Shown: positions 3,825-40,780 of the stretch, in pieces
Position numbering within the stretch: position 1 is the stretch's first letter
How the letters are laid out: the number at the start of each line of letters is the position of its first letter
Source of the DNA: Catajapyx aquilonaris
Taxonomy: Eukaryota
DNA length: 43,486 nucleotides
Assembly (NCBI GenBank): GCA_000934665.2
Contig: JYFJ02003349.1
Location: 1-43,486, forward strand
Direction: 5' to 3'
Position numbers and translations under genes: made by a program
Notes under the pieces: model-generated
The model's database searches: none
The model's input: the letters and a program-made list of their open reading frames with translations, nothing else
Told to the model about the DNA's origin: nothing

Positions 3825-4026
3825 CTGAAAAATGAGAAGAATCATATTAAAATTTCCCTGACAAAGTTTATAATCTGCTACAATTGTGGGAATTTAAATG
3901 AGGGGCAAGTTTGGTATTACATAAAAATACGACTGAGTTCCATAAAAAGCTGCCAATTTTTCACTGCACATCTTGAAACACAAGATTGAATTCAGAAACA
4001 TGTTACCAGTAGGCATTAGTCCTGGG

Positions 4027-4395
4027 CAGCCCACGGACACTACCCCTACAGTCTTATCTTATCACCTGCCGGGGCGTTTTGCATGGGGTGCTCACTTGAG
4101 AGCGCCATGAGACCTTTCACTGCTGGATTATGTGGCGACCCTACCGGACTACGGTGAACTTTATAGGTACAAAAGGGAAGCGTTACATTGGGGGACCCAA
4201 CATGGTTGCCAGCGGCCTTGTTGGGCCCACTTGTAGCGGCTTCACTTCTACCTAAGTTCAGCGTAGTCCGGTAGGGTCGCCACATAATCCAGCAGTGAAA
4301 AGCTGTCTCATGGCGCTCTCAAGTGAGCACCTCATGCAAAACACCCCGGCAGGAGATAAGTGGGAGTGACCAGACCTGAGTATTCTGAGACCATG
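4027..4395. mobile_element. Palindromic non-autonomous element with asymmetric ends (CAGCCC...ACCATG), copy 1
   Basis: 8-bp TSD GTCCTGGG (4019-4026, 4396-4403); roughly 100-130 bp internal inverted arms; homologous to 36960-37276 and 37691-38066. Confidence 0.9.
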
Positions 4396-4403
4396 GTCCT
4401 GGG

Positions 4404-4679
4404 CAGCCCCCTGCAACTCCCTATCTAGCCATATGGGGTAGGCCGTGCACTTAGTGAGTCCCCTATCCCCGGATGTGGAGTAGGCCTACTGTACCAAATC
4501 GCATTTGGGTGGCTGGTGCGGTGGATCTGCAAACTGGGGCTGAATGGGAGTTGGCAATTTAGGTACGTTCAGTATGGTTCAGAAGTCATCGGCCCAAATG
4601 CGATTTGGTACAGTGCTCCACATCTGGGGATAAGGGACTTGCTAAGCGCACGCGAAAAGAGAGGGAGTTGCGGGGGCTG
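4404..4679. mobile_element. MITE with CAGCCCCC TIRs and 8-bp TSD (P- or hAT-type)
   Basis: CAGCCCCCTGCAACTCCCT...AGGGAGTTGCGGGGGCTG; TSD GTCCTGGG at 4396-4403 and 4680-4687; extra internal inverted repeats (CTGTACCAAATCGCATTTGGG). Confidence 0.88.
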
Positions 4680-5254
4680 GTCCTGGGATTAAGACAAAAC
4701 TAAGAGACTTGATCACATTTCATATTCATAAACCCTTTTGAAGTTCCTGCTAGTCATAAGGACTACAAATAAATACCCAAGTCCCAATATTAAAAACCAA
4801 TGCGTTAGGAAATATACTACTTTAGGCCTGTTGGGGCCAGTTTAAAAAAATTCAAATTAAGGAGAGCATCTGCAATGATGCATTAGCTGCTACGGATAAT
4901 TGGAGATTTTCTCCTAATTTGTATTTGAGAAACCAGCCCTAAGACCTCCAAGGGGGTCGCGCGTGGCCGCGGTTATATTTATAAATTTAAAAATTACTGA
5001 TATTAAACAGAAATAAAATTAATTTTATAAATCTCATCTCATCATGAAGGTTTTTTCCAACACCTACTAACACTCCGGGGGGGGGGGGGGNTAAAATTAT
5101 CAATCAATTTCATAAATGCAGTGCAATTAACCCTGTACTGCACACATTTAGGATTTTGGGAAGAAAAAAAATTCGAATGCCTTTTTCTCATCATAGGCGA
5201 CATAAGGATGGTTTTTTAAATGTTTTGGTCATCTCTGACCCAATGACGTTGAAG

Positions 5255-12209: not shown

Positions 12210-12261
12210 ACAGGAGCTAGTCTAATTCTGGTGTAATGAAATAACATAACAATTTACTAAC

Positions 12262-12740
12262 TCTGAATGATTCAACAGATATTGAATCTGAGATGGCTCT
12301 GTTGGGCATAATGAAAGCATCCATTTCCAGATCACCATTTTTGGCCTCCATCACCATGATCTTGTAAAAGTGTGTGGGTACAGCAACATTATTCTTCCCT
12401 AGGACTTGATAGGTGACATACTTCTTTCCATCAGCCTCCTCCCTTGGTAAGAATAGTGTCCCAGTGCACACATACACATTCTTGTACTCCTTCGTCAGGC
12501 CACGAACATACTTCTCCAGCTGATTCCATGAGTGCCGGTTGAAGCCCACCCCAACCTGAGGAGCTATGTTGGATAACAGGAAGGTCTGGTTACACTCCTT
12601 CTGAGAGGTGCGGTAATTTCCTGCAGCTGCCAAATGTCCACGATCGAAACCAGAACGGAAGTAGTCCTCATTTTCAGACCGGAAGTAGTGGTGCACATCT
12701 TCATCTGGCTGGAACTCACATACGGACCGGTCAACCAGAC
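12262..12740 (-). CDS. EndoG: Endonuclease G, mitochondrial; exon 2 (catalytic DRGH motif)
   Basis: Acceptor ttttcaaag, then (G)LVDRSVCEFQPDEDVHHYFRSENEDYFRSGFDRGHLAAAGNY...TFLLSNIAPQ...NVAVPTHFYK...ESFR, then donor gttagt. Confidence 0.97.
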
Positions 12741-12963
12741 CTTTGAAAACAAGAAGTTCAGGACAATGTTGAAGAGGTGCTTTGTTTTTTCAACAAGTCA
12801 TCACTACTTGCACATGAAATATTTTATGAATACACTAAGGGTGTGGTGCACCAAATTCCGTACAACAAATCTGGCCTTTCACTGCAAAAGATTGTATGCT
12901 CTAGATTTGTTTTATACCGAGTTCAATGCTTCCCACCCTAAAACTTCACATTAAAATAGTTAT

Positions 12964-13045: not shown

Positions 13046-14619
13046 TAGATTATTTGCACAAAATATTAGTAAAAATCATTGCCCATATGTAAAAGAGAGA
13101 TATCTCACTCGTCTGACTCCATCTGCATCTTCCCCACTCTGACTGCCACTTCTAGGCCCACCTGTGATACAGCAGCTAAACAGTTACAACTAAGTCCAGA
13201 AATAAAATTCTAGCATTTGGATTAGGTTTCATCTACCCATGAACCAAATTTGGTTGCCATCAGATGGTCAGGAGAGCCAGAAGATATTCCAAAAAGGACT
13301 ATGCCAGACCTCTTCAGGCCCAACTGTATAGAGCCATGTGCCCCTCTAATTGCCTGATGCAAAGAACTGGACATCTTGTTACTCTATGATCAATGGCTTC
13401 CAAGATGTGTTGTGTTTTGTGGAAGGTGGCAAGAGGTGGCATGACTCAAGGAGCCAGTTTCCAATGTCATCTTCCAATATTAAGAACAGCTTTCATCAGA
13501 AAATTGCAGCAGTTCACAGCAAACACTATCCTGGAACACATCCATTCTCATTGTCACTCCAAGCGACTAAGGTAGTTGTTAAAAAACTCAATTCTTGTAT
13601 GAGAATCTTGCTTTCATTTTATGAGTAACTGATCTCATTAATTCAGTAGCATGTCATTTTAAATTACAGTAAGCTACATCACATATTTTGGTCATAAAAT
13701 ACTCAGGTTGACTCTAGAAACATATTTCTTAGATGCAAAATGAACTACAGTACTTCAGATGCAATGATGTGACATGAAATTTTCACAATAATTTTAGTAT
13801 TTTATCAACTTTTTTTTGTTTTGTTTTGTTTTTTGAGTGGTTAACAGTAACTTTTTTTTAAATAGCTGGATGCAACCTAACGGGTTTCAATGCCAGGCTT
13901 CCAAACCCTAAGCTTCATTACAAACCCAGGCCAGGTACGGTATTGAATGAAAGTCTTGTGCCAACATTGTGTTTTGAAACTCAAGATGTGTCTACATTGC
14001 TGACAAAATGCAACCAAGTGCTTCTCTACGTGCCCAACAACAGTTCATCCTATTGGCACATGCACTAGCTGCCATGAAACAATTTACAATCATGCTTATG
14101 TTGGCTATCATTTTTATCTCAGGTTTGGGCTGAACTGTGAAAAATTCAGGGGGGTTTCAAAACTCGAGATTCCTCCCAAGACTTTGCCAAAATTTTGTTT
14201 GATGCAACACTTTCAAGGGTTTTGAAGGCTGAAGCATGTGAATTTATGTAAAACCTGTGTGTTGTTGCAATCGCCCCTTTTAAAAATATCTTCCTAGGAA
14301 CATGCAGAAAAATTTTTATGCAGTGATTCTGTTGCTGCAATGTGAACCTAGAAAATAGTCCTCTTAACATCTCATAAATTGCAGCACTTCTTATGACGAA
14401 AATATAAAAAAGAAGGAAGTTGGTCAATTTATGCTAGCATTGGCTCAATATGTTACAGGCTGCAAAATAAGCACTCACATGCAAAATAACACACCCTTTT
14501 ATGTTAAGAAGGCATGATTCATGCTCCTCCAAAAGAAAAATATTACTCTCCAACCTCTAGTAATGGTTACAGCAATGTAAAATTTGATAATCACACCAAC
14601 TGGAATAGATCAGCATTAC

Positions 14620-14998
14620 CCTTATCTTTGACCAGTTCCCTAGTAAGATGCTCAAAGACCCAGAAGGCAACCCGATTCTTCCGGTCGTAGGAGACAACGT
14701 AGCCATCCCTTGCCAGGATGTTGTCCACATGGGGAAATCCAAATCGGAGGATCTGTGCTGTCCTGCTAGCACTCTTGGGAGGTTCTGGGGGCACCGACAG
14801 ATCAGTAATCTTCCCAGCCGCTGAGACCATGGTCCACGTACGCATGGATGAAGCAGTACCTGACAGGACCCCACCATCCCTGCCACCAGGTTGAGAGTAA
14901 ACGTGCATCGACTCACTCCACCACCTGCTAGAAGCCAGTCCACCCAACCAGGCGCAAAACCCTACCCCCACGTACTTCCCAAGCAAAGGAACTTTCAT
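14620..14998 (-). CDS. EndoG: Endonuclease G, mitochondrial; exon 1
   Basis: ATG at 14998; ...SRTAQILRFGFPHVDNILARDGYVVSYDRKNRVAFWVFEHLT...; phase-1 donor g|gtaatg fits exon 2. The spliced CDS is 966 nt (321 aa). The exact start codon is less certain. Confidence 0.93.
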
Positions 14999-15291
14999 GT
15001 TCAGCACACGTACTAAACAGTACCTACACAGCAGCTATGCAGCTCAATTCACCATCGTCTTTGCACGATCCACTGCACTCAATAATAGTGTCCTCTTGCT
15101 TCGCATTGAATACAGCGGATATGTTGTAGTACATGCAGCATCGAAGTACGCACATGTACAGTAGCAAACCGGTTAGCCGTCCCTTTCAAATTCTTCATCC
15201 AGACATGCAGCATCTAAGCATGGCCATGCCAAAGTTTTCGGATATGCATTATGCTGTTACCTCTAGTCGGCCTCTAGTACACTGTACTTGA

Positions 15292-16473: not shown

Positions 16474-17655
16474 AGGCTATGTGACGGATGGATGGCCAGG
16501 GAAGAAGCAGCTAGAGCCATCGTGTCAGGTGTTTTGGCAAGTCAGAAATGAACTGGGCATCCAGGAAGACTTACTCGTCAGAGGATGCCGTATCCTGATT
16601 CCGAAAGTACCGGTACTTCGTCAAGACATCCTGTCTCGCCTGCATCAAGGACACATGTTTCAAAAACTCGTAGAAGAGCCCTAGAGTCCGTTTGGTGGCC
16701 AGGATTATCAACTGGAATTGAAGAAATGGTAACGAGAGGTCCCATATGTGCTGAATTCAGGACGAACAGGATGGAGCCACTGATGCCTCGTGCATTTCCT
16801 ACTCGACCGTGGGAGAGAGTGTCACTGGACCTATTTCAATTAAAAGGGACATATTACCTGCTCATCACCGACAACTATTCCCGATATTCGGAAGTTTTCG
16901 GACTGAAGACGACGCGACGCGACGTCCACTGCAGAGATCATTGCTCATTGCCGTGAAACGTTTGGACGATTGTGGCACCCAATTTCGCCAGAGACTTGGA
17001 GCGGAATTTGAAAAATTCATGAGGGAGTTGGGTATCCAGCACACCAGGTCTAGCCCAAAATTTTCCCAGAGTAACGGATTCATCGAAGCTAGTGTAAAAG
17101 CTGTGAAAGCTATGATTAAGAAGACCTGGACCTGTTCACAGTTCTGCTGGCATATAGAACGACTCCAGGGAAAACAGATTTTTCCAGCAGAGTTGAGCAT
17201 GGGACAGAAGATCAGATGTACTCTCCATTCCTTGTCCTCAACTCTTCTCCCCACTACTAGAGATGAAGCGAGTTTGCGCAAGAAAGAAGAGAAATTCCGC
17301 GAGAAGCAGAATATGGACTACGATCGCTGTCATGGAGTTCGCACTTTAAGGCATTTACGTCCAGGAGACCAGGTATGGATTGTTGATCTTCGCCGTGCAG
17401 GGGTTGTGTCTATAGACCTGCTGGGACACCCAGATCCTACTGTATAGACACTGCCTTGGGACCAGTACGGTGGAACCAACACCACCTGATTCCTTCTCCA
17501 AACCTTCAGGTGAGTAACCAGATTCCAGAGGAGGTGAGTGACCACAGACTCGGGACCAGCAGACTCCAGAAGAGGTGAGACCTACATCGGACTCCTACAC
17601 CTATCGGACTCGTTCTGGACGACTTGTGAGGCCTCCTGTCAGGATGGACTTCTGA
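16474..17655 (+). pseudogene. Ty3/gypsy pol fragment (integrase), frameshifted
   Basis: RILIP..LRQDILSRLHQGH / ESVWWPGLS..IEEMV..C (zinc-binding region), PWERVSLDLFQ..YLLITDNYSRY, SSPKFSQSNGFIEASVK, ending TYRTRSGRLVRPPVRMDF*; several frameshifts. Confidence 0.92.
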
Positions 17656-17782: not shown

Positions 17783-17820
17783 CTGGGAAATTATCTCATG
17801 CAAGATGGGTCACCACCAAA

Positions 17821-18331
17821 CTGACAACCAAACTAACTCTTTTTACCCTCCTAAATTTTGAAATTATTTGGATTTTCTAATTCTGCTTGACCTATAGTGT
17901 TGTGCAAACATCACCTCTGCTGCTAATTTTCACGTTAGCAGGGTCAAAATACAAGCCAAAAGGTGATATTCCGAAGCCACAACGCCTTCATCCGGTCGCG
18001 GGTGGCCGAGACTGATATCAGTGATACGTAAATGATCGATTAAACTTGATTCATAAATTGCTACATAAAATAATTGATTTCGAAGAGTGTGAGGTGATAT
18101 TCTACTTGTTCGTGCCACCCTAGAGCGCGCTACAGTCGCGGTGACCAGGGACATGCGACCCACGACCGGCTGCTAGTGTTGTGGCTTCGGAATATCGCCT
18201 TTTGCCTTGTATTTTGACGTGAAAATTAGCAGCAGAGGTGATGTTTGCACAACACTATTGGCCAAGCAGAATGAGAAAATGCAAAAATTTTCAAAATTTA
18301 GGAGGGTAAAAAGAGTTAGTTTGGTTGTGAG
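17821..18331. mobile_element. Compound palindrome: hAT-like MITE (17895-18257) inside an outer hairpin element
   Basis: Inner TAGTGTTGTGCAAACATCACC...GGTGATGTTTGCACAACACTA with 8-bp flanks TTGACCTA/TTGGCCAA; outer arms ACAACCAAACTAACTCTTTTTACCCTCCTAAATTTTGAAA and reverse complement. Confidence 0.75.
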
Positions 18332-18660
18332 TGCTTCTAATTTACATCAGCGCTACAGACTCATTTGCAAACTTGAAGGAACTGGCTACTTTCATCATAA
18401 AGTGTATGTCCCAATGTGGTTTTCCATTAAAAATGCAATCCAACCATCAAGGATGCTCCCATCCTTCTCATGGCACCTATAAGTGATGAACTAAAGCTCT
18501 TTGTGGATCAATGCAATTATTCTGCACAATGGTTTCTTCACACATTCACAGAATTTACTTGTAGCCATGCTTACTGATGAATGATAACTCATTCAAGAGC
18601 TAGCTTTGTGTAAAATCTTTTCTGCGAGATCAAGGAGGTCAAAATAAGCATTCCAGTACT

Positions 18661-20835: not shown

Positions 20836-20926
20836 ATTATTATAACAGTATTCAAAATGCCTCTTTAGAAAATGACAGTGGCCATTTGAGGAAGCTTCAC
20901 CAGAAAATTCTCCAAAACAAGCTCAC

Positions 20927-21470
20927 CAGCTGTTGCATTTGGTGAAGATGGAGATGGAATGGTGGTACCGTCTTCTGTGGTTGAGTCACAGATCACTTCC
21001 TCCATTCCATTACAACCAAGGCTTCGTAGCTGCCCTGTGCCACAAACTGGAGGTCCCCTGTCCACAATGCAGCTGTGGGTTGTGCTGTTTACCACATTGA
21101 CCTGCACCACCTTTTCCTCCTTCCTGCCAGTGCTGGTGGCTGCATCTGATACAGTAACTGCTGCCACCATTGTGGCCAGTTTCCCACCGTTCTGTGTCTG
21201 CCCTTGTGCAAGATCTCGCAACTTCTCCAGCCGCTCTCGCGTGGGGTGGAGCGAGAAGGCAGTGAGAACGCACTCTCTACACACCCCAAAATTGTCATGG
21301 AGAAGTTCACCCAGCCGCATGAACCCTTCTGCCAGATGGGCCTCCTCCTTCTGCACAACCTCTCCGTTGTACTTCTTCATCTGCTTCTGCTGCTCCAAGC
21401 TATTGATGTCCCAAGTCAGGCCATGAATGTAAATCTCAATACATAGGGGCTTCACATGCTTCTCTGCAAA
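20927..21470 (-). CDS. RLF/ZNF292/ZNF654 N-terminal-domain-like protein; internal exon
   Basis: tttcag|FAEKHVKPLCIEIYIHGLTWD...LLHDNFGVCRECVLTAFSLHPTRERLEKL...g|gtgagc; resembles the recalled ZNF654 segment CVEICGCALQLD..LPNDLEILRICALSIFFLERS. Confidence 0.85.
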
Positions 21471-21591
21471 CTGAAAGGCAACGAAATTTATGAATGTCCC
21501 CAAGCACAGCACTCTGCGCTATAGAATTGCCACAAAATATTCCACATAACTATTGTAACATAGAGTACTTTGGCAAAGGCCATGCCCAAAT

Positions 21592-25811: not shown

Positions 25812-28678
25812 AATTTTCCCTCCGCTTTCGATCACTTCTGTGTACGTTGACTGACACCAAGTTCAACATATGTAGGCTACCAGACACTACACACGGGTTT
25901 GCTGCTATAAATTAATTAATTAATTACATATTTTGATAATCTACGTATGTAAGGCAAAAAAATAACATCTGTTTGCCTGTGGCAACAAAATTTTGTTGGT
26001 GATTACCATAGAAACAGGCCTGTAAATGGTTTCAAATTTTGCACTTCCCCCAATTTTTTTATCCCAATTTTTTATGTCCCCTCCCCTCAATGTATCTCCA
26101 CCTTGCCGTGGTGGTGGTCTTTCGTTTTCCCATGATCCTGAAGAGCTATGCCGGCGGTAGTTTCGTCTACTGGTAGGGCCGCCCAAGTTGGACAGGTCTT
26201 TGGGATAGGAGACAGACTAAGAGAGATACCAGTCTTTCCTCTCTTCTTTTTCCTCTTTGTTTCTGTCTCCATCTGTCCCACCTTTTTGTATTCTGATAAC
26301 CACATAGCCAGAGTTGCGTGGCTCTTTATTACGCAAACAAACCAGAATTTTTACACCCTTCCAGTGCCTACATATGCAAGGGAATGAGCAGTTTTGTATT
26401 TAATATTGCTTGAGATCTAAGAAGATTTCGGTGTAATTATCCACGCTCTTTTTTCCCCGTGCGAAGAACGGGTACCGCTGCTAGTGTACCATATATTTAT
26501 CTTTCCATTGCAACAACTTATTCAGCATAAAAATTAGCAAGTTTAAATACCATCTTTGTGTGTCATCAAGAGGTGTCATGTAAGTCACAATTTTTTGACA
26601 TTTTAAACATATTTAGCTGTAGTACCAAAATCTAAAAGCTGATATTCATTACCTTCTCACTACACAGCAGTACTCTTCAAATAATAAAAATAATTGTGAG
26701 GTAATATTTGTCTGAACACTGTTATGGCCATTTAATTTTTGTCTTGTAAGTCACGTTTCCGCTTGGATGCCACTGTCACTATTGTTTCCCGGCTGTTAAA
26801 ATGGCACTTGCAGTAGTGGAATGGAAGAAAAAGCAAATGTAATAGTTAAAGCAAGAAGGGAAGTAAGAGCTGTCCTAGATAAGTGCATTGGAAGGCAAAA
26901 AGAAAAGTGTATTTTTTAAAAAAATGGACTTTTAGTGAGAGAGAAGCTTTGAAGGTATAAAATATAGAGTTTGAAAAGCCAACAATGCCAGACAGTTTGA
27001 TCCAAACACAGCTGGAGAATTTGCAGAAGTTGACCATAGAGTTTATCCAAATATTAATATTATATTCATTGGATCAAAGGATATTGAAAGAAGAACAGCT
27101 ACGCTTGATGAAATGTGGACTCCTACTAGAAAAGAAGTTGTTTATTTTCTTGACTAAGAAAATCTCATTATTTCAGTACACTTGGACATTATGAACTAGA
27201 ATATTCTCTTATTTCCAATGCTTCCATTTATGAGTTTGATATTGTTTATTTTTAACTGGACCTATTAAGGTGGAAATGAAGCGACTTGCTAATCAAATGA
27301 GAGTCTAGAATTGGAATGTTAATAAGAAGGGCTAAAATCAGGGAAACATACGCAACCGATGCAGCAGTAAATGCTGTTCAATCCTATGCATTCCATTCGA
27401 ATCTGCGTTTTAAACTCGATTTAATATGGGCCTATTACCGGCTGCAAGTTTTTGTGCGCAGGCGCCATTTACACGACTGCCAACTTAAACATGGTATTTG
27501 GAGGTGTGCTTAATATTTTTTATTTTTGATGGAAATCGATTTAATCCGGTCGTAATTACGAGGTCCCAATTTGTCATGGCATTTTTAAAAGTTTAGTTCC
27601 GAAAGGGGAGCCTGTAGCTCTTCATTTGTGTCGGATTTGGAACACGTTCAGTTGGTACGCGGGTGACAGATAGAAGCGGCAACGCAGCAAATGTCCAGGC
27701 CAATTATCGCGTAGCAATGTGACGTCATTGCCGGGTGGATTCGAATGATTCGATTTTTTTATTATAATTATAACTATATAAACTAATATAACGGTTCTGA
27801 CGTCTGACAAACACCCCCGCCAAACGAAAATCCTGTGTGAGCCATTGTGAAAACCATCATACTAGCTTGCACTCATATTTCGCGGTCGTATGCAACCGTA
27901 TCTCGCTACCGTAAACAACGCTATGTTGCCACGTCCTCACTCGAGTGTAGCAATGTGACGTCACTGGATCATTTTCGGATAGTTTTTCAGCAATACAAAT
28001 TGAAAGAGCACGGTGAGGCAGGTTTTTCTTTTTGCGGTTACGATCAGTATATAATTCCCGACATATTCCACATTAAATTTTAAAATTCTCATTTGCTTAT
28101 CATTTTTTTGTGGACTATTGAAAATTCTGCCATAAGGGCCCATGTTAAATCGCGAACTTCTGAGCCCTCTAGTTCGCTAATTTGCACGGTGACATGTATT
28201 TTTCTTTGCGCCATTGATAAGAGGACACAAAACTGCGTAACATATGTTTTTTTCATAAAATTCTCATTGAGTGACTCTAGCTTCATTTCCACCTTAAAGA
28301 CATTGTAACACAAACTTCTGGTACTCATGCAGCTAATATTCATCCCAGATGTGTAATTTGCCTGCAGAATCTACAAATAATAGTGAATCCACTTTTAGTT
28401 TTACAGATAATAAAGAAGATAACTGGATTGTCATTGAGTGCAAATATAATGGACAGAACTCACTACATGCTTTGTTGGGCAAGTCATACCAATTTATAGA
28501 CCATTTATACACAATCATATAGACTACGTAAATTGTAGTAGCCTACATATACATTCCGCCTTCATGGCATTACATCCCATGACAGGGTGGCCAGCAACGA
28601 CCATCAGGTATCACACCTGGCCATCTCACATGACAATACAATGCATCCACTGCTGTCTACTCAGGTACACACATTATA

Positions 28679-28997
28679 CAGGGTGATTCTCCCGAATGGA
28701 AACCCAAACATTCCTCAATAACTTTTTAACTATGGTATGGTTCCCTATGAAAATTGACTTGTACTTACCTTGTATCATGCAAACAAGGTCTGACTAAAGA
28801 ATATACCGAAAATGGTCCCCTCCAGCATCCAAGAATTTTTAAATGGAAGTCTGCATATTGCCGAAGACTCCTGCAGATTGGCAGCCAGGGATGGAGCATG
28901 ATACAAGGTAAGTGCAAGTCAATTTTAATCGGGAACCATACCATAGTTAAAAAGTTAATGAGGAATGTTTGGGTTTCCATTCGAGAGAATCACCCTG
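28679..28997. mobile_element. Tc1/mariner-type MITE with about 100-bp TIRs
   Basis: TA|CAGGGTGATTCTCCCGAATGGAAACCCAAACATTCCTCA...TGAGGAATGTTTGGGTTTCCATTCGAGAGAATCACCCTG|TA. Confidence 0.9.
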
Positions 28998-29258
28998 TAC
29001 ATGAATTATACATGTTATTATAAGAATTGAAGCCCTGCACATTCTCATGTAGGCCTATCATTTAAATATTTAAATAAAATAACATGTAATAAGAGAGATT
29101 ACTTTGTTTGTGCGCTAAAATCCCAAATTCTTCTCACGAATCTAATCAGAAAGCAATGAGGACAAAAGTGTCGTGTAAGTCACGTTTCAAGTGTCGTGTA
29201 AGTCACGAAAGAAATAATTTATTTCTTGTAGAATTAATAATATAACACCAAGTTTACA

Positions 29259-31125: not shown

Positions 31126-32168
31126 TAGAATAATATTTTGATTTGGGTCTTTGAAAATATCCTCAACCCAATAACACTAACATTTATGCATAAATGTGAA
31201 GAATTTTACATTCATATCTGAAGCCTCCATTACCAGTGGCTTTCTTGTCGTGTAAGTCACGAATTCCTTTATATAACTCAAATGAAATGTGCAACTGTTA
31301 AAATCAAAACATTAATGAACACTTAGACACATACTGCCTATTTGTGTTTAAACACCCTTTCCTTACATGCTAAGTTTGTGCTTTACAAAATTAAAAGTTA
31401 GGCATAAACTGAGTGTCATGTCGTGTTAAGTCACGCGTGGAATTAGCCTTAACACAGTAATTAAATATTAAGCACTCCAAGTTAGCAATGTGCACTCCAC
31501 ATGAAAGTCTGGAGTGCGAACTTTGCACCTGGACAAAAAAATTAAAATTCTACCCCTGCTGCACTGATGTTGCTTTCCAAGTCTTCTAATGTTGAGGCTC
31601 ACTGTTGTAAGCACAACTCTTCAAAAATACCCCCATACACTGCTCTTTCGGCAGGTGGAAACAGAATACCCGGTTTCTTGTGACAAAATCTTGATGACTT
31701 TTTCTGTCATTCCAGAAGCCTGTGCTTCACTTTTTCTATTTTTACCTTCCTCTAAAGGAGGTCATCTACCACTGCATTGGTCCAAAACACTTGGTTCACC
31801 AATCCTGACTATTAATGTCGATATGCTGTGGAGGGCTGTCGATAATAAGGAGCGTCGAGTGGCGTTCGAGTGCGTGTAGAGGACGCTGAAGGTCTAGTAC
31901 AGCATATATTGTGAATGGTGCTACATTTCCATGAACTAAGGCGAGTTTTAAACCAAACATCATGTTTCTTGGTAGAGCAGGAAGAAAAATACAGTCGATT
32001 CTTTGGGGGGACTACCTAGTGAAACACCCTGTATAAACATGGCTCTTTCTTCGCATTCATCGAAGCACACACAATAGCATGCAATTCACATTACTTTCCC
32101 ATTTTGTACCAATTAATTAAGTGTAAGGCCCACAACAGAGGTGGAATGAGAAAGATTTTCAGCCTCAC

Positions 32169-32492
32169 CTTTGCAACCAGAACATCGCAGAACAGGTACA
32201 AATGCAGGGAGGACTCAGCAACCAGGATGAGCTTTCGGACCATGGTGAAGAGGGTTTCGGTGGAGACCTCTAGATGACGCTGTACATCCGCCCAGCTCAT
32301 CATGAGCTCCGTGAGATCTTCCTCTATGTCGGGTGTGACCAGTGCTGAAGTCATGAAGAACTGGCTGGCCAGATCTGTTACTTTCAGGCTGTTGTGCCAG
32401 ATGCTGCTCCCAGGGCCCTGGGGTGGAGACTCACAGCGGGACAAGAAGCGCCATACCAGCATGGTCCCTTCCTTTATGCTAAGGAGCTTCAG
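32169..32492 (-). CDS. RLF/ZNF292/ZNF654 N-terminal-domain-like protein; internal exon
   Basis: ttgctatag|LKLLSIKEGTMLVWRFL...LTELMMSWADVQ...VRKLILVAESSLHLYLFCDVLVAK|gtgagg; 324 nt, phase 0/0. Confidence 0.85.
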
Positions 32493-35460: not shown

Positions 35461-35697
35461 CTGAAAGCAGGAAAAGTGGACAAAAAAGTGTCAACTTGTA
35501 AAAAACATACATGATTCAGACAGATTTATATTCACATAAACCCAAAAGCAATCCACCATCAATATCGAAGAGAGCATCTGTAACATTGCCACAATACAGT
35601 AAGTAGTAAGTAAGTATGTTTATTCCCTTTTGGAGTTACATGACTCAGTATTTTGGAAGGAGTCCATACAAAATTACATAAATCAGCTTCACCATTA

Positions 35698-35870
35698 CCA
35701 TTGGCACAGATTATTGGTGCGAATATTGTCAACTGTGATTGTTGAGAAATAAACAACGATTTCAGCTTGTATCTGTGGCCAGTCGACACCTCAATTGCCA
35801 GACTGAAATCGTTGTTTATTTCTCAACAATCACAGTTGACAATATTCGCAACAATAATCAGTGCCAATGG
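35698..35870. repeat. Hairpin with about 70-bp near-perfect arms
   Basis: CCATTGGCACAGATTATTGGTGCGAATATTGTCAACTGTGATTGTTGAGAAATAAACAACGATTTCAG and its reverse complement. Confidence 0.88.
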
Positions 35871-36208
35871 CAACAGCCACAACAACATGTATGATGACGC
35901 AATGGGGCCCTCAAGGCAGATGTGACGTCATGAAACTCCTAAAATCTTAAAGGCGTCGTACGCAAAAACTATGCAAGTTAGCCCAAAACTACTTCCACAT
36001 CCCTATATTAGTTTTGCAAGTCCTATCAGGCTACGTGGCCACTTTCCGCGAGTTTTTGAGCACCCTGTATGCATTTTGTCTTTTTCCAAGAGGTAATAAG
36101 TACACATTATGCAAATCTCTATTAACAGGACCGCCTGTACCAGTACTATCAGTAATAACATTGGCAAAGCAAAATAACAAAATTTAAAATAGGATTCATT
36201 GATTAGGC

Positions 36209-36486
36209 CAGTGGTTTTCAACCTTTTACCAACTGCGACCCCCTAAACAAATTTCCCTAAATGTGCGACCCCCTAAACAAATTTCCCTAAATGTGCGACC
36301 CCCCCCCCCNGTTTCCATAAACGTGCGACCCCCCCCCCCAGCCCCTTCTACAACTGCCCAATTTCCTGAAAACACACTCTGTACGGCCGCAAAAATGGTT
36401 CAATTTACACAGAAATTGCAAAGAAAATAATAATAATAATAACAAAGGCTTACGACCCCCCGCGACCCCCAGGTTGGAAACCCCTG
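36209..36486. mobile_element. hAT Buster-type MITE
   Basis: CAGTGGTTTTCAACCT...AGGTTGGAAACCCCTG; perfect TSD GATTAGGC; GCGACCCC subterminal repeats. Confidence 0.9.
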
Positions 36487-36949: not shown

Positions 36950-37436
36950 CAGTGTTGGACAGCCCCCGGACACTACCTCTACGTTCTTATCTTATCGCCT
37001 GCCGGGGCGTTTTGCAGGAGGGGCTCACCTGAGAACGCCATGAGACCTCTCACTGCACTGTTATGTGGCGACCCTACCGGACTACGCTGAACTTTATAGG
37101 TACGAAAGGGAAGTGCTTCCCTTTTGTACCTATAATAAAGTTCAGCGTAGTCCGGTAGGGTCGCCACATAACAGTGCAGTGAGAGGTCTCATGGCGTTCT
37201 CAGGTGAGCCCCTCCTGCAAAATGCCCCGGCAGAGGGTAGGTGGGAGTGTCCAGACCTAAGTATTCCATGACCATGGTGTTGGACATAAATCGAAGCATA
37301 CTGCCAGCGACATTTTCCGAAGCAGCAGAAAAAGGACTCTTGCTCACCCGACTTGAAGTATCCTTATCGTCAATTCCTTCTTCTGCCGCTTCGGAAAATG
37401 TCGCTAGTAATATGCCTCAATTTATGTCCAACACTG
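36950..37436. mobile_element. Tc1/mariner-type MITE whose left TIR is interrupted by palindromic element copy 2
   Basis: TA|CAGTGTTGGA[insertion]CATAAATCGAAGCATA...TATGCCTCAATTTATGTCCAACACTG|TA. Confidence 0.85.
36960..37276. mobile_element. Palindromic asymmetric-ended element, copy 2 (central deletion)
   Basis: TSD GTGTTGGA (36952-36959, 37277-37284); near-perfect hairpin centred near 37114. Confidence 0.9.
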
Positions 37437-37690
37437 TACTTCCACGCAAAATGTTACCATATTGCAATCTTGACCCACAAAGCCAAGTGTAAATCACTGC
37501 ATGCACATACCTCCACAGTGTAAACAAACAGACTGCACCTGCATATCTAAATTATCTGTACATGCTCCAGATGCACAAAATTCAAAAGCATCTTCACACA
37601 GACATGCAAATAAACATTTTACAGTCAATTTTCATAACAACCATTGCAATAGGACTGGTACACAGAGACAATCTCAGGGATAGTCCAAAC

Positions 37691-38066
37691 CAGCCCACGG
37701 ACACTACCCCTATCTTCTGGGCTTATCACCTGCCGAGGGGTTTTGCAGCGGGTGCTCACCTGAGACCGCCACGAGACATTTCCCAGAGCATTTATGTGGC
37801 GACCCTATCGGACTAAGGCTGAACTTTACAGGTACGAAAGGGGAGGGCTACATTGGGGGCCCCAACATGGCCGCCGGCGGCCATGTTGGGCCAGCATGTA
37901 GCGCTTCCCTTTCGTACTACCTATAAAGTTCAGCCTTAGTCCGGTAGGGTCGCCACATAAATGCTCTGGGAAATGTCTCGTGGCGGTCTCAGGTGAGCAC
38001 CCACTGCAAAACCCCTCGGCAGGGGGTGGGTGGGGAGTGACCTAACCTGAGTCTTCTACAACCATG
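37691..38066. mobile_element. Palindromic asymmetric-ended element, copy 3
   Basis: TSD GTCCAAAC (37683-37690, 38067-38074); central perfect 30-bp palindrome CCCAACATGGCCGCCGGCGGCCATGTTGGG. Confidence 0.9.
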
Positions 38067-38089
38067 GTCCAAACACACTGCAGGCTTAC

Positions 38090-38249
38090 CTGGATTGTTT
38101 CCTGACCACCACTGTAATCGAATATAGACATATAAAGCGAATCACAGGCTTTTTTACACTTACTATAAGGGTCATTCAAATTAAAACAACACAAGGTCAT
38201 AGCAAATTGAAGGGTTTGGTACAAAGACCAGATAAGTCCACTTTTGTTA
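38090..38249 (-). CDS. Candidate upstream exon of the RLF/ZNF654-like gene
   Basis: Pyrimidine tract plus aag|, open frame NKSGLIWSLYQTLQFAMTLCCF...GQETIQ|gtaagc; phase 0 fits the next exon. Confidence 0.45.
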
Positions 38250-38946
38250 CTTTCGAGAAAACAAAGAAAACTGAATTACCTGCTAATTTTTTTAAATGTT
38301 TCTAATTATAATTTTTTTCTTTAATAGGGGGATACTGAAGTCTGTAGTGAACTGTAGTGCAAAGCACACTTCCTTGTGGGTGTATAGATAGAGGTGTCAC
38401 CATTGCTGAGTAAGCCATAGTCTTTTGCAACATTTCGTTAGTCTTGCGAAACCTTTTATGTAACATGTTAAACTATTTTTCATGCGTCATCGTATGATGC
38501 AAAGGTACCCTTCAATTTGACCGTATCGTCGTTAAATACGAAATGCGTCATCTAATGTAGAGCTACTAATGACGCATTTCAGCACATTAAAACGAACCGT
38601 ATCTAATTGAAATGGTATCGGTAGTGTCAGGTGTCCCAATGTACGTCAATAGGCATCTGCGTGCGTCATTGGAAACCGTCATAAAGTAGTTAACACGTGG
38701 AAGTTAAGTATAAAAGACCAAGTTTGGGCTGTCTTAGCAGCAGAGATCCTCCAAGGCACACCATGGCCAAACTCAGCACTTGGCAACATTCTCCCTCTCA
38801 CAGGACGTCCACGCCACGTAAGTTTACAACAAGTGTCCTTAGTACTCAAACAGTGTTAAACACTTATGCTTTTCAATAACGATTGTTAGCAAGCACATTT
38901 TTAGTGCTCATTTATTCCTTGAATAAATATCAGTTGTTATTCTTAC

Positions 38947-39305: not shown

Positions 39306-39875
39306 CGAGGGCGAATCAAAAAGTAATTGACCACTTTTTAAATTCCGAATCTTCACAACAGAAACTGAAACCAAGACATACATATGAAAGGGCAAGTCTT
39401 TCTCTAATTTTAGACATAGTCACCATACACTTTGGTGCACTAGTCCCACTGGGACACTAGTTTTTCCATCATGCACCTGCAGAAAAAAGGGTCAGGATGG
39501 CTGGGAAGCTACTGGCGACAGCCTCTGTCACGTCCTCGTTATCACTGAAGTGCTGACTGGCCAGGTGCTTCTTTCATTGGTACCAAATGATGGTCTTAAC
39601 CACCATCTCTTTGAACCAAAAAAGAAGTACTGGCTTGTCATGACCTCAGCGACTCGAGGAAATGTCTGGAAAGCCAGTGGCGGATGGTCTCTTTCATTTC
39701 CTTGATGTTGCTGAGGTCTTGACAAGCCAGTACTTCTTTTTTGGTTCAAAGAGATGGTAGACTATGGTTAAGACCCTCATTTGGTACCAATGAAAGAAGC
39801 ACCTGGCCAGTCAGCACTTCAGTGACAACGAGGACATGACAGAGGCCGTCTCCACTCGCTTCCCAGCCATCCTGA
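39306..39875 (-). mobile_element. Mariner 3' end with foldback inversion of the transposase remnant
   Basis: TIR CGAGGGCGAATCAAAAAGT; - strand reads LASQHFSDNEDVTEAV..PFFC..MEKLVSQWD*CTKVYGDYV; 39492-39665 is inverted at about 39694-39875. Confidence 0.8.
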
Positions 39876-40269: not shown

Positions 40270-40780
40270 ATTATGACACACTGACACTGGCCATTCGATC
40301 ACTCGACACAGTGGCAGTGTGCCTTTGTTCAGGACCCCTCATCAAAAAGATCATCCAGTCCAATATGGAATTAATGAATATACGTTGATTAGCTTGCTGC
40401 AATCCGTTTTTGAATCATGGAAGGTGTCGGCAGTACTGAAATCCATCCACTGCATGTCTTTGTCATGTGTTAGAGCCTGGAATAAGCAGTTTGCATTCCA
40501 TGGCCTGGAATCACCGCACCGGTCAATGACAACCACCCCTCTTGGAACCGCTTACTCCAGGCTTTAACATGTGACTGAGGCATGCAGTAGATGGATTTCT
40601 GTACAGCCAACACCTTCCACAATTCAAAAATGGGTTGCAGCAAGCTCATCAAATTCGTTGTTTCCATATTGGACTGGATGGTCTTTTTCATTGGGGGGGG
40701 GGGGNGGGGGGGGGGGGTCCTGAACAAAGACACACTGCCACTATGTCCAGTGATTAAATGGCCAACTGTCAGTATCATAA
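40270..40780. repeat. Long foldback element with about 230-bp arms
   Basis: TGGCCATTCGATCACTCGACACAGTGGCAGTGTGCCTTTGTTCAGGACCCC... / ...GGGGTCCTGAACAAAGACACACTGCCACTATGTCCAGTGATTAAATGGCCA. Confidence 0.85.

Follow-up and report, generated by a model that had tools for sequence, protein, structure and literature searches.

A palindromic mobile element, present in three copies in a 43,486-nt contig of Catajapyx aquilonaris (JYFJ02003349.1, assembly GCA_000934665.2; this whole stretch of DNA is called the window below), carries copy-specific sequence variants that are mirrored in both arms of its long hairpin. The element is highly repeated and has no recognisable coding capacity, and its copies differ by 11–21% from one another, whereas the two arms within a copy differ by 2–4%. 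With moderate confidence, we interpret it as a non-autonomous, probably hAT-like cut-and-paste transposon of the MITE (miniature inverted-repeat transposable element) type, whose interior would have been templated from arm to arm in its source lineages and whose arms would decay independently after insertion. The mirrored variants themselves are a real and statistically solid observation at n = 3 copies; every comparison between copies reported here uses these three, all taken from the window.

Three copies of a mobile element

We searched the window by blastn with each copy in turn and found exactly three copies, all on the + strand. A first-pass annotation of this DNA had treated the interval 36960–38066, which runs from the first base of copy 2 to the last base of copy 3, and the strings that it quoted are present where it had placed them. 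The three copies and the duplications that flank them are the following.

4027–4395, + strand: copy 1 (c1), 369 bp, with left terminus CAGCCCACGG.. and right terminus ..GACCATG
36960–37276, + strand: copy 2 (c2), 317 bp
37691–38066, + strand: copy 3 (c3), 376 bp, with an intact central palindrome
4019–4026: left target-site duplication of c1, GTCCTGGG, identical to 4396–4403
4396–4403: right target-site duplication of c1, doubling as the left duplication of a neighbouring element, E'
36952–36959: left target-site duplication of c2, GTGTTGGA, identical to 37277–37284
37277–37284: right target-site duplication of c2, within the terminal repeat of an interrupted element, M2
37683–37690: left target-site duplication of c3, GTCCAAAC, identical to 38067–38074
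38067–38074: right target-site duplication of c3

The insertion sites bear out the earlier description of this sequence as a mobile element. The target-site duplications are perfect (8/8 nt) in 3/3 copies, and the duplicated 8-mer is a different one for each copy. M2, into which c2 is inserted, is another inverted-repeat element, preserved as a stub (36950–36959) and a remainder (37277–37434), with arms of 60 nt that are 88% complementary. Excision of c2 together with one 8-mer restores the terminal repeat of M2, yielding a 21-nt string that is the exact reverse complement of the opposite end of M2; the reconstructed site is as good as an empty site. The duplications of fixed length, the size of 317–376 bp, the lack of coding capacity and the high repetition with a shared boundary are all features of MITEs. 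The elements and their immediate neighbours are overlapped by 12 open reading frames of at least 75 aa, none of which (0/12) matches a Pfam family; the remaining 113 open frames of this minimum length in the window show no transposase domain.

We assessed repetition from read-derived contigs; these represent four runs of a single sample, which is probably that of the assembly itself. Among the matches listed, 40–47 contigs per run (X1, X3, X4) start fitting at 36960 and are unlike the DNA before it, and exact contigs span both junctions of c3 (37389–37717 in 4 runs, 38042–38256 in 3). Summed word depth in run X1 amounts to 8,500–50,000 over the element versus 72–74 in the unique bins at 37494–37635. 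The word depth of the element is 10^2–10^3 times that of the unique bins, a rough ratio from one sample that is not a copy number. Taken only as a rough reading of this depth, the family comprises hundreds of copy-equivalents at a likeness of at least 80%.

One long imperfect hairpin

The first-pass annotation had described the element as hairpin-forming, and structure prediction agrees with it. Folded as single-stranded DNA, c1, c2 and c3 reach predicted energies of -152.5, -160.9 and -183.5 kcal/mol, respectively, with z scores of -20.9, -28.5 and -31.9 against shuffles. The element is thus predicted to be able to form a very stable hairpin, and in these models nearly the entire element is one long imperfect hairpin.

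The alignment of the three elements defines the layout. The element starts with an 8-nt unpaired 5' tail (CAGCCCAC) and finishes with a 24-nt unpaired 3' tail whose end is ACCATG. The outer helix is short, pairing columns 9–19 with 346–355, and 8/9 of its pairs are invariant; an invariant inverted motif, GGACACT.CC, lies 9–19 nt from the left end and 25–35 nt from the right end. On the left, but not on the right, 12 nt bulge out before the start of a long interior duplex, in which 2 × 100–140 nt are paired. The arms of this duplex in c2 and c3 are located as follows.

36999–37097, + strand: left core arm of c2, 99 nt, 99% complementary to 37135–37233
37135–37233, + strand: right core arm of c2
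37729–37834, + strand: left arm of c3, 106 nt, 97% complementary to 37918–38023
37918–38023, + strand: right arm of c3

Both c3 (37838–37917) and c1 (4170–4250) have an extra palindromic tip of ~54 nt on the same axis, and c2 (37100–37135) is without this tip, symmetrically about the axis. The central palindrome of c1 is degenerate, with 23/41 aligned positions alike. On general grounds, instability at the tip of a palindrome would yield both a symmetric loss of the tip, as in c2, and a scrambled centre, as in c1. In each run, one contig links position 37107 to 37838, a hint of a copy in which c2-like arms are combined with a retained tip.

Variants are mirrored within copies

We aligned the six arms with MAFFT and took as the core the 101 columns from CCTGCCG to TGAACTT. 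Arm identity in the core is 93/97 within c1 (plus a 3-nt indel), 95/97 within c2 and 96/98 within c3 (95.9–98.0%), whereas the 12 comparisons between copies give 77–86 of 97 (79.4–88.7%). At 16 core columns, both arms of each copy agree and the copies differ, which substantiates the claim of the first-pass annotation that copy-specific variants are mirrored. A single arm of a single copy departs at 11 further core columns, and side-specific columns number 0. The three-element alignment gives the same picture on the level of base pairs: 97.1% of its cells are paired, and both sides have changed in 19 of the 143 predicted pairs. When the partners are slid by 1–3 columns, this number falls to 0–2; shuffles give 7.5 ± 2.0, and 0/500 of them reach 19.

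The outer ~38–42 nt follow their side and not their copy. Here, the same side is 76–87% alike between copies and left versus right 34–54%, which confirms the asymmetric ends reported earlier. Maximum-likelihood trees separate the two regions accordingly, with core arms pairing by copy (support of 96 for c3 and 68 for c2) and outer ends splitting by side (100 for the right-end clade).

Conserved blocks surrounding a variable segment had likewise been described before, and we find both. The 16-nt block TTATGTGGCGACCCTA occurs six times in the window, three times per strand and once in each arm of the three copies (6/6), at an expectation of 0.01 from 100 shuffles. Half of the mirrored columns (8/16) lie inside the 12 columns directly before this block (p ~0.0009, for a window size that was picked after seeing the data). 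Columns 100–108 form a 9-nt block with three unrelated states, each of them perfectly mirrored.

4119–4127, + strand: variable block of c1, ACTGCTGGA, mirrored at 4288–4296
37052–37060, + strand: variable block of c2, ACTGCACTG, mirrored at 37172–37180
37783–37791, + strand: variable block of c3, CCAGAGCAT, mirrored at 37961–37969

The possibility that the c3 block is the c1 block swapped between arms was dropped, the likeness being limited to CCAG and a few letters. In addition, c3 carries a mirrored 1-nt insertion at column 136 of the arm alignment. Transversions are found in 10/15 mirrored substitution columns, including pair swaps from CG to GC and from UA to AU, and with the 9-nt block the transversion excess of the mirrored changes has a p value of 0.027.

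The read-derived contigs place the letters of c2 within the family. Deviations of c2 from the other family letters form three reciprocal pairs (37022 G>T/37210 C>A, 37035 A>G/37197 T>C and 37049 C>T/37183 G>A). These pairs only show that the c2 letters are a family minority and are no proof of mirroring in other copies. At three c2-specific sites in run X1, the depth of the c2 letter is ~1,100, 180 and 120, compared to ~35–70 per single copy, which hints weakly that other family copies share these letters. A contig of run X3 at 37016–37078 represents one family member with 28 other letters in this stretch; among these are an additional, fourth version of the variable block and a changed form of TTATGTGG, a block that is otherwise constant.

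Changes private to one arm

Substitutions confined to one arm are transitions in 7/8 cases and lie at CpG in 3, in a window with an observed/expected CpG ratio of 0.57. Insertions of 3 nt in one arm only are found at 37132 (right arm of c2) and 37915 (right arm of c3). Most of the family depth is without the letters at 37223 and 37234 (right arm of c2) and at 37808 (left arm of c3), and also without the two insertions. These private one-arm changes are ordinary post-insertion lesions that were left uncorrected.

The evidence points to an origin of the mirroring in source lineages and not in the resident copies, since the target-site duplications are intact despite the 11–21% divergence of the copies and since each copy has private one-arm changes. 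Given the private substitutions and 3-nt insertions, any homogenisation would have to be placed in the source lineage or in transposition. The earlier proposal that the arms are actively homogenised can therefore be kept in part: copying from arm to arm is the best reading of how the variants originated, but for the resident copies the proposal is doubtful. Ongoing active homogenisation of the resident copies is not supported, a slow process being still conceivable at three copies.

A model of arm-to-arm copying

The three copies would descend from three diverged source lineages. In these lineages, the interior palindrome would be kept self-complementary because one arm repeatedly served as the template for the other, either by template switching or hairpin-primed synthesis in replication or by gap repair at the donor site. 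Through a single such event, one arm could acquire from the other a substitution, an indel or a block of several bases. The outer helix and the unpaired termini, which are presumed to be transposase sites, would be inherited side by side and not rebuilt from one arm, and after insertion the resident arms would decay separately via point mutation and slippage.

Copying from arm to arm is the best reading and fits better than pairwise compensatory mutation, because the mirrored changes include a 1-nt insertion, a 9-nt block in three states and transversion pair swaps for which there is no wobble route. The absence of the tip from c2, symmetric about the axis, also counts for copying, as does the crowding of 8/16 mirrored columns into a stretch of 12. 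The termini, the bulge and the unequal tails are shared throughout the three copies and group by side. It follows that one half does not serve to regenerate the whole element and that any copying is restricted to the interior. Components of this process have been published. Template switches in replication are described in PMC8794818 as creating and repairing hairpin stems, with multi-base compensatory changes, and a fold-back model in which MITEs are amplified with the nascent strand as template was put forward for fish MITEs by Izsvak et al. in 1999, according to its description in a section of PMC8268682.

Several observations weigh against this model. Without the 9-nt block, the transversion excess is not significant (p 0.28), and the divergence of the core between copies is 8.0–13.6% versus 16.2–21.2% for the unpaired ends; this difference is not significant either (Fisher p 0.14–0.22), and its direction is the one expected from purifying selection on pairing. 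The variable block has no donor inside its own element other than its mirror, there being no second 7-mer or 8-mer, direct or inverted, and two isolated 6-mer matches only; beyond the family's own arms, no sequence of the window is matched by the 24-mers around the block when up to 5 mismatches are allowed. With no donor found, the model does not account for the origin of the block variants. Because there are only three copies, we infer the source lineages and do not see them. The contigs come from a de Bruijn graph, in which the arms of a palindrome share words, and they are thus no proof that the arms were read independently. Finally, the 8-bp duplication and the CAG terminus are the only features that suggest the hAT superfamily, and the two termini share little beyond CA.

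A stronger version of arm-to-arm copying, to which we assign a low probability, is that rebuilding of the palindrome from one arm, between the conserved blocks, belongs regularly to propagation and is achieved by template-switch or hairpin-primed synthesis. The 9-nt duplex would then act as a cassette, rewritten in a single step with immediate mirroring. If true, arm-to-arm templated synthesis in an animal genome would be naturally recorded by this abundant family, which, if the hairpins are also transcribed, would generate diversified perfect-duplex precursors of small RNAs.

Alternative origins of the mirrored variants

Selection on pairing alone is unlikely, though the most probable of the alternatives. 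It supposes that a hairpin, of RNA or of single-stranded DNA, is needed for function or transposition and that the mirrored differences are independent compensatory mutations fixed in active lineages. The 97.1% of paired cells and the 19 covarying pairs are in line with such selection, as is the lower, if not significantly lower, divergence of the core without the block (8.0–13.6%) compared to the ends (16.2–21.2%). Compensatory changes are also reported, in passages of PMC3116915, to be common in the hairpins of bacterial REPINs. However, independent paired point mutations are no reasonable source of a 1-nt insertion present in both arms or of a 9-nt block mirrored in each of three states. 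Many of the double changes are transversion pairs (CG to GC, UA to AU), the block has no wobble intermediates, and no Rfam family is matched at the gathering score. Selection on pairing may nevertheless act as a filter on top of copying.

We consider it doubtful that homogenisation continues in place, with resident arms interconverting by mismatch repair of a cruciform or hairpin or by intra-element gene conversion, so that most of the divergence would have accumulated after insertion. Arm-to-arm conversion is established for large palindromes, and arms that are 96–98% alike in copies that differ by 11–21% would be its expected outcome. The three perfect 8-bp duplications argue instead that the insertions are young relative to this divergence. 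Each copy also has private one-arm transitions, c2 and c3 have private one-arm 3-nt insertions, and the centre of c1 is heavily degenerate (23/41 aligned positions alike). The depth of c2 letters above that of one locus at three sites of run X1 points in the same direction, as weak evidence.

Repeated independent births are less probable still. In each sublineage, a diverged progenitor without a palindrome would have had one of its halves duplicated in inverted orientation, which makes the arms identical at birth. Mirrored lineage-specific variants would come for free under this scenario, and the inverted repeats of Galileo are described, in a part of PMC3573991, as extending by copying of one side onto the other. 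The boundary between core and ends, the 12-nt bulge, the unequal tails and the symmetry axis are common to the three copies, however, and each birth would have to recreate all of them.

An artefact of assembly or polishing, in which true arm differences were collapsed because the arms were taken as alleles of one path, is very improbable: although the window is a draft (4 N), the arms share words in a de Bruijn graph and the read-derived data are such contigs from one sample, each copy retains, in the core and directly inside it, 2–4 substitutions and a 3-nt indel, so that a collapse would be partial at best and a partial collapse of arms is unlikely; ~10–17 differences per copy would have to be erased while those surviving were spared; and the pattern is alike with different letters at three separate loci, with exact contigs confirming both junctions of c3.

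Relation to known elements

The termini, CAGCC.. and ..CCATG, share CA only, and the long interior forms an inverted repeat. The hAT superfamily has the consensus termini YARNG and the consensus target nTnnnnAn. The element shares with it an 8-bp duplication, present in 3/3 copies and in the neighbouring element E', and a left terminus that starts with CAG. In comparison to this consensus, CAGCC and CATGG (the right terminus as reverse complement) each miss one position, and 1/3 targets fit (GTCCAAAC). Unlike in hAT elements, the terminal inverted repeat is minimal here (CAGCC versus CATGG), and the element may instead belong to P, Merlin or another of the superfamilies that make 8-bp duplications.

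The first-pass annotation had called the element undescribed, which holds at most for this particular family. Palindromic MITEs, the fold-back model, within-copy identity of repeats and compensatory changes in hairpins have all been published. No paper on this family turned up in the literature search, and exact scans of metagenome, viral and genome contig collections for a 24-nt pattern present in 6/6 arms of the window returned 0 stretches.

Palindromic MITEs resemble the element most directly, being small, non-coding and highly repeated, with target-site duplications and a stem-loop formed by nearly the whole element. The fold-back model of Izsvak already proposes, as outlined in a section of PMC8268682, that a nascent strand folds back to template its own continuation. 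Unlike in that model, the termini here are unequal, with unpaired tails of 8 nt and 24 nt, and cluster by side, for which reason fold-back synthesis of the whole element does not fit. Galileo, a Foldback-like transposon of Drosophila with long inverted repeats, offers a close parallel to the mirrored variants: in the account given in parts of PMC3573991, its subfamilies differ, both inverted repeats of one copy are 98–100% identical, and chimeric copies are betrayed by divergent repeats. According to the same parts, Galileo differs in its size of kilobases, its internally repetitive terminal repeats, its 7-bp duplications and its P-type transposase, whereas the element described here is ~0.35 kb long and has no tandem sub-repeats.

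REPINs, which are hairpin-forming doublets of bacterial REP sequences, resemble the element in several respects. Going by passages of PMC3116915, they combine blocks that are conserved with a spacer that varies, their compensatory changes are common and their tail is asymmetric; there, they are bacterial, ~70–110 nt long and moved via single-stranded DNA by the tyrosine (HUH-type) RAYT transposase, with no target-site duplication. Mutation by template switching at quasi-palindromes, as characterised in PMC8794818 (see also PMC5453318), similarly makes or repairs a stem in a single event, with multi-base compensatory and clustered changes; it is a general mutational process and not an element, and its action here would be read from the pattern. 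A further likeness is to the hairpin small-RNA genes derived from MITEs, such as Made1/mir-548 (PMC1784062), in that a palindromic MITE would give a long perfect hairpin if transcribed; the best Rfam microRNA matches of the present element lie far below threshold.

Several candidates were rejected. A Foldback element is expected to have long repeats built of tandem sub-repeats, and Tandem Repeats Finder reported no array in 36960–38066. An element of the REPIN or IS200-IS605 type, which would make no target-site duplication and have a RAYT or TnpA partner and a bacterial host, is ruled out by the 8-bp duplications and the eukaryote-like gene content. Helitrons and Helentrons make no target-site duplication, insert between A/T or T/T and end in 5' TC and 3' CTRR; a derivative of these is ruled out by the 8-bp duplications and by the ends CAG.. 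and ..CATG. A described RNA family (microRNA precursor, short interspersed element or other tRNA-derived sequence) was dismissed, as there is no covariance-model match at the gathering score and no tRNA-like head. Rfam gave 0 matches in the window at this score, the best sub-threshold match of an element being of the microRNA type (26.7 bits versus 70), and there are 0 tRNA genes in the window and no tRNA-like part in the element.

The element documents a known phenomenon well and does not constitute a new kind; the mechanism is plausible, published in outline and unsettled by three copies. How palindromic MITEs hold near-perfect hairpins during drift is still argued, with selection on folded intermediates, fold-back synthesis and template-switch repair as the proposals. 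This family has an unusually clean layout, in which some blocks are invariant, a single short duplex is hypervariable and the ends evolve side by side; its copies apparently number in the hundreds.

Neighbouring elements and window context

The neighbour of c1 is an element with terminal inverted repeats (TIRs) of its own.

4404–4679, + strand: element E', 276 bp, TIRs CAGCCCCCTGCAACTCCCT.. and ..AGGGAGTTGCGGGGGCTG, followed by a third GTCCTGGG at 4680–4687

E' matches the left terminus of c1 at 16 of the first 26 nt, and both start with CAGCCC... The 8-mer GTCCTGGG occurs three times in 4019–4687, before c1, between c1 and E', and after E'. Its presence at all three borders implies that two different elements with related left termini hit exactly one 8-bp target. 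The target duplications of c1, c2 and c3 (GTCCTGGG, GTGTTGGA and GTCCAAAC, at 4019, 36952 and 37683) all start with GT and 2/3 with GTCC, which may reflect preferred targets. In two of the three cases, the insertion is in, or adjoins, the end of another inverted-repeat element. The family of M2 is more repeated than that of c1–c3, with a summed depth of up to ~100,000 in run X1, and among the listed deviations of M2 from its family majority, none makes a mirrored pair.

Inverted repeats are dense throughout the window, which contains 24 inverted-repeat pairs of at least 30 nt with partners within 400 nt. At least 15 further long palindromic elements are found in the 43 kb, with arms of 45–177 nt that are 76–96% complementary and with short spacers (examples are 1256–1774, 17820–18332, 28677–28999, 35695–35873, 39492–39875 and 40385–40652); none of these has a second copy in the window. 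A 30-nt tandem repeat of 2.3–3 units at 36234–36340 ends in a C-run with an N.

A DNA/RNA non-specific endonuclease gene (Pfam PF01223) is present in two exons on the - strand, at 12220–12789 (E 1.8e-45) and 14594–15034 (E 3.9e-4). The frames at 20868–21518 and 32094–32492, also on the - strand, match successive parts of the Rlf-like zinc-finger TPR domain weakly and below threshold (PF25580; 18.4 and 20.0 bits versus a cut-off of 27); they may belong, as exons, to a single large gene that has c2 and c3 upstream. On the + strand, 16552–16953 has a sub-threshold match to an integrase zinc-binding (H2C2) domain (24.1 bits versus 25.5) and is probably a retroelement remnant. The endonuclease exon, the CpG depletion (0.57) and the dense short inverted-repeat elements make the window look eukaryotic.

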